Shown here in pieces: positions 404-2,965 of a DNA stretch of 20,005 bases (position 1 is its first letter; every line of letters starts with the position of its first letter). Source of the DNA: Thermoanaerobaculia bacterium (GTDB lineage: Bacteria; Acidobacteriota; Thermoanaerobaculia; Multivoradales; UBA5704). The position numbers were made by a program, and so were the translations under genes. The notes under the pieces are model-generated. The model saw only the letters and a list, made by a program, of their open reading frames with translations. It was not told the origin of the DNA and searched no databases. The stretch is from the NCBI GenBank assembly GCA_044226625.1, contig JBGAGQ010000088.1, forward strand, positions 1 to 20,005, in the 5' to 3' direction.

Positions 404-2965
404 TCAACCTCTTGAAAACGCCGGCCCTGACGCACGGAAAGGTGCGACGAAGCGCTCTAGGAGGTCCGCCCGTTCGGCGAGGAGCCGAAGGGCTTGGGCG
501 TGCGGCGCGGCGCGGGCGACGGCGATTCGAGCGCGTTCGAGGCGTGCTCGCAACGCCTCTTTTGGAAGTCGCGGGTGGGGGAGGTGGCAGGGCACCCCCT
601 GGCCCAGGAGGATGGCGTCGATCCCCTCCGGGCCCCAGAGCGGATCGGGGTAATCGAAGCCGTCGCGGATCGGCGGATCGTAAGAAAGCGGGCCGCGCTG
701 GCGGAACGCTTCGAGCAGGTCGGCGCGGTGGGAGACGTCGACCTCCGCCCGGGCCGCGCGCCAGAAGGGGGCGTCGAGGCGGCGGTTGAAGCGGTAGTGG
801 ATCGCGAGGAACCAGGCGAGATAGTCCCACCAGGCGCCGACCTTTCGGTCGTAGAGAGGCGCGAGGCTCCGGTCGCCGTGGCGGAGTGGAAACACTTGGC
901 AGAGTAGCCCGATCTGGCGGATTAGCAGGTGGAGCGCGGTCGATTCGAGCGGCTCGACGAAGCCGTAGGCATTCCCCAGCGCCATCGTGTTGCCGCGCCA
1001 GAAATGTTCGTGCCGCCCGGTGCGGAAACGCACCTCGCGCGCGGCTCCCATGCCGGGGTTCGCGCGGCGCATCTCGGCCTCGGCCTCCTCGAAGCTCTGG
1101 AACGCCGAGGCGAAGACGTAGCCGCGATGGTCGGCCTCGCCCTGCGGCGTGCTCCAACACCAGCCGGCGGACATCGTCTCCGCCGTCGTGTACGGTCGGA
1201 TGTGGCCGCCGTGGGGCACCGGGGCGACGACCGCGCGATCGGTCCAGAGGCTCCGGTCGAAGCTCACCCAAGGCGAGCCGAGCGCCCGTTCGATCAACAG
1301 CGAGCGAAAGCCCGTCGCGTCGACGTAGAGATCGAAGCCGAACCGCCGACCGTCGAGGGCGACCAGCGCCTCCACTTCGCGGCCACCCGAGCCGTCGTCT
1401 CGCGTTTCGACCTCTTCGAGTGTCGCCTCGATCCGCTCGATCCCGGCCTCCGCCGCGCGTCGCGCGAGATAGGCGACGAAGCGCTCGTTGTCCAGGTGAT
1501 AGGCGACCGCCGTGCCGAGCCGCGCGGCCCAGGAGTCCTCGCCGTTCGGATCAGGACCCAGACGGTAGAGACCCACCGCGTCGGCGGCCATCAGCAGCGA
1601 GGGGAGAGAGCAGCTCTTGAGGCTGGAAGTTCCTGCGTCGGATTCGCTTCCCGCGGCGCCATAGACCGCGGGCTCCAGGAGATGAAGCGGGCCGAACGGA
1701 TAGTGGAAATCGCCGACCTCCGGCTCGCCCCAAAGGAAGCGGATGCCGAGCTTGAGCGTCGGCCGGACCTCGGCGAACAGTTGGTGCACGTCGAGCCCGA
1801 GGTCGGCGTGGAGGAACTGCGGCATGAGAGGCGTGGTCGCCTCGCCGACGCCGATGACGGGGTGGTTCGGCGATTCGATCAGGGTTACGCGCAGGTCCGG
1901 CACCTTCCGCCGCAGCGCGAGCGCGGTGAGGTATCCCGCCGTGCCGCCCCCGACAATTCCGACCGAACGGACCAGGTCCCCGCGTTCGATCGAAGAGATC
2001 GCGGCGCGGGGTAGGGATTCTTCGCGCTCGACGATCGAGAGCAGAGCCGGGGAGGTGAGATCGGTCTCCGGGGGAGCGGTGATTTGTGAGCAGAGGGGGC
2101 ACTCGGGGTCCCGTGCGAGCGGGATACGGCGAGCTTCGCCCGAAGAGAAGGATTCGGTCGGAAGCAGGAGAAAAGCATCGACGAGAGTGGGCTCTCCGCC
2201 ATGAGGCCCGAGGATTCGGAGCGTCTCGGCGATGACCGCCCGCTCCGCCCAAGCGCGCGCGGTGGGATCGACCGTATGGACCTCGAAGTTCGAGATGGCC
2301 GAAAGCCTCGCCGAGGGATCGAGACCGAGGAACCGCGTTGCCGCGAGTTGGGCGCAGGTGATGCACGGACTGAGGCCGGGGATCACCGTCGGGCCGACGC
2401 GAAGCCCATCCGGGTCGGCGGTGATGAAGAAGGCCGGGAGGTTGAGGCTCAGACAGGCGGATTGATCGGCGAAAAGATCGCGGTACGAGACCCCCTCGGC
2501 GGCACAGACGACGAGCGACGCGGTTTGGAGGAAGGCGTCGGAAGGATCGAGCCGGTCGAGACGCCGGATCGGTGTGGGGGGAGCAGCCCGCCGAAGCGAC
2601 TCCTCCAGTGCGCGTGCGAACGTGGAACTTCCCAGCACCAGGACCGACCGGTGCTCGGAATTGGGTGTTGGGTTCGCTGGCAGCTCGGCTCGGCGGACCA
2701 TTTCGCCGAAAAGCGCCCGGAGCAAGCCCCGAGCCTCCCGCTCGTCGAACGGAGGATCGAGCGCAGCGGCTGCGGCGACGACCTCCGCAGCCGTTCGGAC
2801 ACCGTCGACCAGGCCGAGTAGGCGATCGAGGTTGTGAAGCTCGACTCCGGCGAGGAGGCTAGCCCCGCGGCGGTGGCGGACCAGGAGCCGGCCGTCGGGA
2901 AGGGCTACCGCTTGAGCCCGCGGGTCTCTTTCGAGGACGTCGCCTGGCTGTAGGGGTCGAGTCAT
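404..2965 (-). CDS. Fusion protein: RRE-like domain + E1/ThiF-like TOMM leader-binding domain + flavin-dependent tryptophan halogenase (853 aa)
   Basis: The C-terminal ~520 aa carry halogenase motifs: GIVGGGTAG (FAD binding), GVGEAT, TLKLGIRF (catalytic Lys position), DATGFRSLL, GWCWSTP (WxWxIP variant) and GFVEPLEST. Residues ~105-295 contain RVGPTVIPGLSPCITC and RDPECPLC, typical of E1-like TOMM proteins. Residues ~1-95 have a strand-strand-strand/helix pattern with LLGLVDGVRTAAEV, typical of RRE domains. Confidence 0.9.
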   Translation of the reverse strand: MTRPLQPGDVLERDPRAQAVALPDGRLLVRHRRGASLLAGVELHNLDRLLGLVDGVRTAAEVVAAAAALDPPFDEREARGLLRALFGEMVRRAELPANPTPNSEHRSVLVLGSSTFARALEESLRRAAPPTPIRRLDRLDPSDAFLQTASLVVCAAEGVSYRDLFADQSACLSLNLPAFFITADPDGLRVGPTVIPGLSPCITCAQLAATRFLGLDPSARLSAISNFEVHTVDPTARAWAERAVIAETLRILGPHGGEPTLVDAFLLLPTESFSSGEARRIPLARDPECPLCSQITAPPETDLTSPALLSIVEREESLPRAAISSIERGDLVRSVGIVGGGTAGYLTALALRRKVPDLRVTLIESPNHPVIGVGEATTPLMPQFLHADLGLDVHQLFAEVRPTLKLGIRFLWGEPEVGDFHYPFGPLHLLEPAVYGAAGSESDAGTSSLKSCSLPSLLMAADAVGLYRLGPDPNGEDSWAARLGTAVAYHLDNERFVAYLARRAAEAGIERIEATLEEVETRDDGSGGREVEALVALDGRRFGFDLYVDATGFRSLLIERALGSPWVSFDRSLWTDRAVVAPVPHGGHIRPYTTAETMSAGWCWSTPQGEADHRGYVFASAFQSFEEAEAEMRRANPGMGAAREVRFRTGRHEHFWRGNTMALGNAYGFVEPLESTALHLLIRQIGLLCQVFPLRHGDRSLAPLYDRKVGAWWDYLAWFLAIHYRFNRRLDAPFWRAARAEVDVSHRADLLEAFRQRGPLSYDPPIRDGFDYPDPLWGPEGIDAILLGQGVPCHLPHPRLPKEALRARLERARIAVARAAPHAQALRLLAERADLLERFVAPFRASGPAFSRG

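Follow-up and report, generated by a model that had tools for sequence, protein, structure and literature searches.

What would a flavin-dependent halogenase do with a leader-binding module that is normally tied to YcaO cyclodehydratases? The question is raised by a single gene on contig JBGAGQ010000088.1 of a Thermoanaerobaculia bacterium (Acidobacteriota), the whole 20,005 bp of which were analyzed and are called the window here (contig C96 of genome G000, a 6.6-Mb assembly in 133 contigs). The gene (404..2965; all genes, domains, and motifs given below with window coordinates up to 6814 lie on the minus strand) is one open reading frame (ORF) with no internal stop codon. Its translation, 853 amino acids (aa) long, reads as a RiPP recognition element (RRE; RiPP, ribosomally synthesized and posttranslationally modified peptide), an E1-like domain, and a flavin-dependent halogenase. 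An original prediction, made from the letters of the DNA, had described a leader-binding module of the thiazole/oxazole-modified microcin (TOMM) type joined to a halogenase in place of a YcaO, and every coordinate that it gave was exact on the 853-aa translation. The comparative data support the architecture and the ancestry of this fusion, which appears to be an undescribed combination of known parts; a full-text literature search found no description of an RRE/E1-like-halogenase fusion, although survey supplements, such as RRE-Finder-type domain tables, could list one. We consider it probable, on the basis of sequence comparisons and structure models, that the gene product is a self-contained halogenase of peptide tryptophan that is guided by the leader. 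That reading gains support from a candidate precursor peptide gene directly downstream, which was absent from the original prediction.

The C-terminal part of the protein (residues 334 to 853; 407..1966) was assigned to the MibH-like flavin-dependent tryptophan halogenases by Pfam, phmmer, and Foldseek. The Pfam domain PF04820 (Trp_halogenase) covers residues 335 to 798 with an E value of 2.4e-105 and 353.5 bits, against a gathering cutoff of 21. The best sequence match in the PDB by phmmer was MibH (5uao; E value, 7.7e-125), which aligned over nearly the whole domain and was followed by PyrH, Thal, RebH, and PrnA at 1e-59 to 1e-46. Likewise, a Foldseek search with the full-length AlphaFold2 model gave MibH chains as the best match (E value, 2e-52), with target template modeling (TM) scores of 0.90 to 0.91 and 43 to 44% identity. 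The Pfam domain and the agreement of sequence and fold on MibH thus bear out the proposal that the partner of the module is a halogenase and not a YcaO. The motifs of the family were followed in an alignment of 45 sequences. In the GGGTAG FAD-binding motif (residues 339 to 344; 1934..1951), G339, G341, A343, and G344 are invariant. The predicted catalytic lysine, K405 (1751..1753), is also invariant and aligns with the lysine of KLGIRF in MibH and PyrH. A variant of the WxWxIP motif, WCWSTP (residues 602 to 607; 1145..1162), keeps the invariant W602, W604, and P607, and an FVEPLES stretch is conserved across the family and aligns with MibH and PyrH. We take the KLGIRF lysine and the FVEPLES glutamate to be the catalytic pair of these halogenases. 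With GGGTAG, K405, WxWxxP, and FVEPLES all conserved, the halogenase looks competent as judged from its sequence. The genome also contains a second, more distant halogenase paralog (contig C86:121113-122465; 35% identity), for which tblastn detected no N-terminal module.

The N-terminal part was more difficult to place from single sequences. The AlphaFold2 model of the full-length fusion, built on 45 homologs, had a mean predicted local distance difference test (pLDDT) score of 89.8 and a predicted TM score of 0.78, but Foldseek returned halogenases only, and so a separate model of residues 1 to 330 was built (pLDDT, 89.1). In this model, strands at residues 10 to 38 and three helices at residues 43 to 85 give the layout of a PqqD-like RRE, and a low-confidence linker (residues 96 to 103) leads into a Rossmann-like domain. 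The top Foldseek matches were TruD (1.2e-12) and LynD (1e-11 to 1e-10), with alignments of about 320 columns that take in the RRE as well; MccB, McbB, UBA5, and ThiF were further matches. The TM scores were modest (about 0.4) and the root mean square deviation was large, which would be expected if the angle between the RRE and E1-like domains differs; the identity to TruD and LynD was 14 to 16%. Residues 301 to 333 (1967..2065) join the module to the halogenase in the full-length model, with a helix at residues 304 to 317 and a drop in pLDDT at residues 320 to 333.

With residues 1 to 330 as a single query, phmmer returned only a weak match in the PDB, to the PbtF RRE (E value, 0.23), and a profile search was therefore needed. 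The module profile was built from 27 sequences, eight of them non-halogenase relatives, a composition that favors ThiF-type matches. Against the PDB it matched TruD (1.2e-24), MccB (1e-21), LynD (3.7e-17), MoeB (1e-16), PaaA (1.2e-16, from profile position 12 onward), MusD (4.6e-14), ThiF (6e-13), and the PbtF RRE (1.4e-4). The RRE is thus placed at residues 1 to 95 (2681..2965), a region that includes LLGLVDGVRTAAEV (residues 49 to 62) and on which the strands and helices of the model, the PbtF profile match, and the TruD and LynD fold alignments agree. The E1/ThiF-like domain follows at residues 106 to 300 (2066..2650), where profile and fold matches to TruD, LynD, MccB, MoeB, and ThiF coincide with a subthreshold match of the NCBIfam model TIGR03882, "TOMM precursor leader peptide-binding protein" (residues 178 to 299; E value, 2.4e-7).

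Conservation within this second domain is uneven. Its four cysteines are invariant in 14 full-length homologs and at least 90% conserved in the 45 sequences. They form the pairs CITC (C201 and C204; 2354..2365), which is invariant in 27 of 27 sequences when ThiF relatives are included, and CPLC (C289 and C292; 2090..2101). A TADPDG stretch is likewise invariant in the alignment of the 14 homologs. The nucleotide loop, VLGSSTFA (residues 110 to 117; 2615..2638), is degenerate in two alignments: the fused family has GxGxLA and the present protein has GSSTFA, where ThiF relatives have G[LV]GG[LY]GS (e.g., GVGGLGS). Every fused form in the alignment also lacks, through a deletion, the DxDxVxxSNLNRQ stretch that true ThiF relatives have. 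The degenerate loop and the absence of the NLNRQ stretch argue that the E1-like domain is non-catalytic. Sequence and model evidence together support the assignment of the N-terminal module as an RRE followed by an E1-like domain, putatively non-catalytic, of the sort found in TOMM cyclodehydratases. In outline this is what had been predicted: an RRE-like region at about residues 1 to 95, an E1/ThiF-like region at about residues 105 to 295 with both CxxC pairs intact, and a degenerate nucleotide loop. The AlphaFold2 model with Foldseek, and the profile search, place both folds in the N-terminal region, and the loss of the NLNRQ stretch adds to the degeneracy.

The relatives of the module point to its origin. 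A phmmer search with residues 1 to 330 against 1.84 billion representative sequences gave 97 proteins at E values of ≤0.001, of which a motif test found a halogenase in 51 and none in 46. Among these 46, domain scans covered the 26 that were at least 300 aa long, the other 20 being shorter and left out. YcaO was found in 11 of the scanned proteins, ThiF in 10, and a halogenase that the regular expression had missed in 2; the family matches were TIGR03882 (22 proteins), the SagD family (11), and the SagC family (6). BLASTP against one uncharacterized E1-like-YcaO fusion (P0039; 769 aa) aligned residues 10 to 292 at 29% identity (E value, 3e-22), a stretch that takes in the RRE as well as the degenerate loop and the two CxxC pairs. 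These sequence comparisons make the RRE and E1-like pair, taken as a single unit, a homolog of the module at the N terminus of fused TOMM cyclodehydratases. The premise that the module normally belongs with YcaO cyclodehydratases therefore stands: its nearest non-halogenase relatives are YcaO fusions, and TruD and LynD are its top fold matches.

The fusion is not confined to one contig. The N-terminal region is shared by 14 database proteins, most of them 816 to 877 aa long, and the closest relatives of the halogenase gene are in Thermoanaerobaculia and Holophagales (Acidobacteriota) assemblies. A scan of one genome per species yielded 247 relatives, and the best 80 loci were kept, with L001 to L005 as the five closest to the window. 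A locus was called fused if, upstream of the FAD motif, the frame stayed open for 200 aa or more and contained two or more CxxC motifs, which could be scored at 76 of the 80. The fused architecture was found in 52 of the 76, including complete chromosomes of Nostoc sp. C117, an Aliinostoc sp., and an Altericista sp. After removal of rows under 470 aa, a tree was made with 92 halogenase domains, of which 50 came from fused forms, 39 from stand-alone ones, and 3 from contig edges. The fused forms fell into two large groups, each with stand-alone sisters. One group, with 31 rows of which 23 are fused, is acidobacterial; the window belongs there to a clade of 8 rows, all fused, that is well supported. 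The second, with 27 fused rows among 29, comprises Cyanobacteriota, Myxococcota, and Pseudomonadota. The fused label changes at least three times on well-supported branches, and nine times on the tree as drawn, which fits one or several origins of the fusion.

These data also dispose of the idea that assembly or gene calling had joined two separate genes, for which the fragmented, metagenome-type state of the 133-contig assembly would be a reason. The frame is unbroken, and the same architecture recurs in the 14 database proteins and the 52 loci, some of them on complete chromosomes. In addition, a unitig from run X1 matches the window exactly over nucleotides 1919 to 2264, a stretch that runs through the domain junction; as run X1 may be the source sample, this match does not count as independent evidence. 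Runs X2, X4, and X5 contained small, diverged parts of the stretch only and were not used as evidence. The artifact explanation, which the original prediction had named as a way in which it could fail, is already refuted by the comparative sequence data.

A candidate precursor gene starts 210 nucleotides downstream of the fusion stop codon on the same strand (194..3). Its product begins MKKKKLTLAKETLARLE and is read for 64 aa before the contig end cuts off the 3' end of the gene; Cys, Ser, Thr, and Trp are abundant in its core. The gene is recognized as an ORF, by its orthologs, and by the NCBIfam model NF038153 (lant_leader_L1a), which its leader matches with 25.1 bits, above the cutoff of 22. 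In L002, L003, and L005, the fusion is followed downstream by full-length orthologs of 72 to 75 aa; the L003 ortholog scores 19.6 bits with NF038153, under the cutoff. An alignment of the four peptides has 42 invariant positions, among them W39, W55, and eight Cys. Contig C23, where an ortholog of the S9 peptidase beside the L002 precursor is encoded, does not contain the missing 3' end and does not join the window. In run X1, a second variant of the precursor region was observed at window positions 63 to 162, with 12 differences and a depth of 10.9 of 26.8. Either a co-occurring strain or a second copy accounts for this variant, which may be the reason for the assembly break inside the precursor gene.

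On the reading that we favor, the RRE would bind the class-I-lanthipeptide-type leader of the adjacent precursor (the KLTLAKETLARL region) by β-strand addition, and the E1-like domain would serve as a scaffold and dimerization unit. The core of the tethered precursor could then reach the halogenase site. There, FADH2 from a separate reductase would give rise to hypohalous acid, which the Lys405 region would steer onto one or both of the invariant tryptophans (W39 and W55). The single LanB and the LanC enzymes of the genome may process the core in trans, and the co-oriented ABC transporter would presumably export the product.

Several observations weigh against a leader-guided tryptophan halogenase. 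The precursor gene is not found at L001 and L004, two of the five closest loci; a query with the precursor did not find it in the genome of L001 and gave a weak paralog only in that of L004. When the genomes of L001, L004, L007, L012, and L013 were queried together, no ortholog was found among them, only weak paralogs at 42 to 44% identity. A search of all 80 loci by regular expression for L1a-type precursors within 10 kb found them only at L002, L003, and L005. With no L1a-type precursor near the other Acidobacteriota loci, the pairing of fusion and precursor is conserved only among the nearest relatives. At an Acanthopleuribacteraceae locus (L021:12273-13001), two peptides downstream of a fused halogenase, with leaders that end in LEGVAGG and LEGVTGG, have Cys-rich cores that lack Trp, which means that the substrates of the family may not all be Trp peptides or that this pair is not a substrate. 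The TIGR03882 match reached 28.7 bits with the whole protein and 31.1 bits with residues 1 to 330, short of the curated cutoff of 36.9. The WxWxIP position has a Thr in place of Ile (WCWSTP), against WCWNIP in the family consensus and WCWTIP in MibH. The window yielded no flavin reductase, and 12 of the 24 ORFs submitted to Pfam had no match at E values of ≤0.01. A complex prediction with module and precursor alignments, run without controls, gave no answer (score, 0.00), and nothing is drawn from it.

Some of these same observations fit other explanations. The module might only dimerize or act as a scaffold, a relic of its former role, with the halogenase acting like MibH on a leaderless cyclized peptide or on some other substrate. 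E1-like domains dimerize, and the precursor is missing from the two close loci. MibH, the closest characterized match (43 to 44% identity), is described in the ChlH preprint as accepting only a leaderless cyclized peptide, which also counts against a leader-guided enzyme, as leader dependence is then not a property of the MibH clade. A relic should decay, however, and the 14 homologs show conservation of at least 90% in the RRE stretches LPDGRLLVRH and VDGxRTxAE, which keep the majority residues in the 45 sequences; moreover, the module is retained in two large clades and several phyla. We therefore regard a mere scaffold as unlikely. A still active E1 is far more doubtful. Such an enzyme would adenylate and modify the C terminus or a carboxylate of the peptide, besides halogenation, as do MccB and PaaA, and these two (RRE plus active E1) are indeed among the fold and profile matches. 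With the GSSTFA loop degenerate, DxDxVxxSNLNRQ deleted in all fused forms, and a resemblance of the module to the non-catalytic form in YcaO fusions, adenylation by this protein is very improbable.

A different role for the module would be as a shared docking platform that binds the leader and also brings in a separate YcaO in trans, in the manner of E1-like and Ocin-ThiF partners, so that azoline or thioamide formation would be coupled with halogenation on one scaffold. The original prediction had offered docking of this kind as its second option, and its fortunes differ between clades. For the clade of the window it has no support: the contig encodes no YcaO, and none was found in L001 to L026, the five closest loci included, within 10 kb of the halogenase gene. 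The only YcaO of the genome is on contig C5, directly beside a TfuA gene and its own two genes for small peptides, and no need for an E1-like partner is known for TfuA-type YcaOs. In the Nostoc and Polyangiaceae clade, where a YcaO lies in the same cluster, docking in trans may still occur. Across the set, a YcaO, mostly with TfuA, is within 10 kb of the halogenase gene at 13 of 80 loci, all scored as fused (L038, L039, L041, L043 to L046, L048, L049, L052, L063, L067, and L079). Fused halogenases of Nostoc, Aliinostoc, Altericista, and Polyangiaceae (e.g., L038:4115-22480) are surrounded by a larger RiPP cluster that encodes Lant_dehydr_N, a metallo-β-lactamase-fold protein, a second, stand-alone halogenase, TfuA, a 402-aa YcaO, Lant_dehydr_C, and a Nif11-type precursor ending in ...TSTTMCCW. 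That neighborhood, the YcaO fusions among the nearest non-halogenase relatives of the module, and the presence of an orthologous YcaO of about 418 aa in the genome of the window and elsewhere in the genomes of all five closest relatives speak for docking in trans. Set against the lack of a YcaO near the gene and the separate setting of the only one in the genome, they leave it rather unlikely for this protein. The TfuA-YcaO pair on C5 (C5:23592-26850), with its two peptide genes just upstream, is itself a candidate thioamide-type RiPP locus.

Returning to the leader-guided halogenase, its partners may be dispersed in the genome. One LanB (C93:86992-90363) and two LanC proteins (C4:58628-59944 and C114:7232-8530) are encoded, none on the contig of the window, and the LanC gene on C4 adjoins three of the precursors described next. 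About 46 small ORFs with class-I-lanthipeptide-type leaders (KLxLxKETL...GG) and cores rich in Cys, Ser, and Thr were observed on many contigs, for example, at C4:57628-58500, C84:194728-194934, and C26:7244-7468; the regular expression for the leader gave 53 matches, of which about 7 are apparently spurious. So many precursors with a single LanB look like a distributed lanthipeptide system in which one enzyme serves many substrates. It is conceivable, but we would not expect it, that the RRE/E1-like module reads the leader common to the approximately 46 precursors and that the halogenase, LanB, and the two LanC enzymes decorate a library of Trp-bearing cores. If true, that would amount to a distributed combinatorial system in which a docking module from azoline pathways is portable and the leader by itself suffices to program halogenation.

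Upstream of the fusion gene, the same strand encodes the 614-aa ABC exporter (4970..6814; Pfam ABC_membrane and ABC_tran), which is kept in L001 to L005; the five loci have in common this exporter and a convergent secreted S9 peptidase. Two small proteins without a Pfam match are encoded between exporter and fusion. One is Cys rich and 81 aa long (4700..4945), and an ORF similar to it follows the ABC gene in L003 (5497-5724). The other is 95 aa long (4024..4311) and has a similar ORF just upstream of the L003 fusion gene (9160-9354). A 21-bp tandem repeat of 3.6 copies is present at 3633 to 3708, within a stretch where G+C is lower (0.62), about 670 to 740 bp upstream of the fusion, and a similar repeat-like ORF lies upstream of the L005 fusion gene (9595-9870). 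The ORF at 2962..3336, which overlaps the start of the fusion gene, has neither a family nor a coding signal and was rejected as spurious. The remainder of the window (7416 to 20005) seems unrelated: it encodes a 520-aa secreted protein without a family, ZnuA and ABC-3 zinc-uptake proteins, TspO, DinB-family proteins, an 887-aa Ser/Thr kinase, and a BTAD/AAA regulator.

Among known systems, the cyanobactin heterocyclases of the TruD, LynD, and PatD type, and MusD, are built in the same order as the window protein, with an RRE and then a non-catalytic E1-like domain. In those enzymes a YcaO is attached; here it is a flavin-dependent halogenase, and no azoline chemistry is implied. MccB and PaaA have the same two-domain fold and Cys4 site, but they keep the ATP-binding motifs and adenylate a peptide, whereas the module of the window protein has lost those motifs. 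On the halogenase side, MibH, the Trp-5 halogenase of NAI-107 (microbisporicin) and a relative of ChlH, shares the KLGIRF lysine, WCWxxP, and FVEPLES with the window protein. Both occur in a lanthipeptide-type context, the leader at the window being of the class I type. The MibH chain of 541 aa aligns with the halogenase part only and has no counterpart of residues 1 to 333. Fusion of an RRE to a tailoring enzyme of RiPP pathways, as opposed to a primary enzyme that defines the class, has a precedent in MppG, a non-heme iron hydroxylase (preprint 10.64898/2026.10.04.756588); there, the RRE stands alone at the C terminus, with no E1-like domain and with a different chemistry. The RRE and E1-like pair, by comparison, moves as one unit across enzyme classes and could serve as a handle in genome mining for RiPP tailoring enzymes.

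Peptide-modifying halogenases, according to the ChlH preprint, are MibH, SrpI, Thal, and ChlH, of which MibH accepts only the cyclized leaderless peptide and SrpI needs about 18 leader residues. According to PMC10858898, SrpI has no embedded RRE and requires none in trans, and MppI is described as leader dependent in PMC11791876. By these descriptions, SrpI and MppI are flavin-dependent RiPP tryptophan brominases that need a leader, and they are set apart from the window protein, likewise flavin dependent, by its built-in leader module. The characterized peptide tryptophan halogenases, in these accounts, are thus leader free (MibH and ChlH), read a leader without a dedicated domain (SrpI and MppI), or are limited by position (Thal and RebH variants). 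A halogenase with a separable, well-understood leader-docking module would be a template for leader-programmed, site-selective halogenation of peptides, and halogenated tryptophan can be used in cross-coupling chemistry. The family is broad across phyla and includes cultured Nostoc strains, which opens it to study at the bench.

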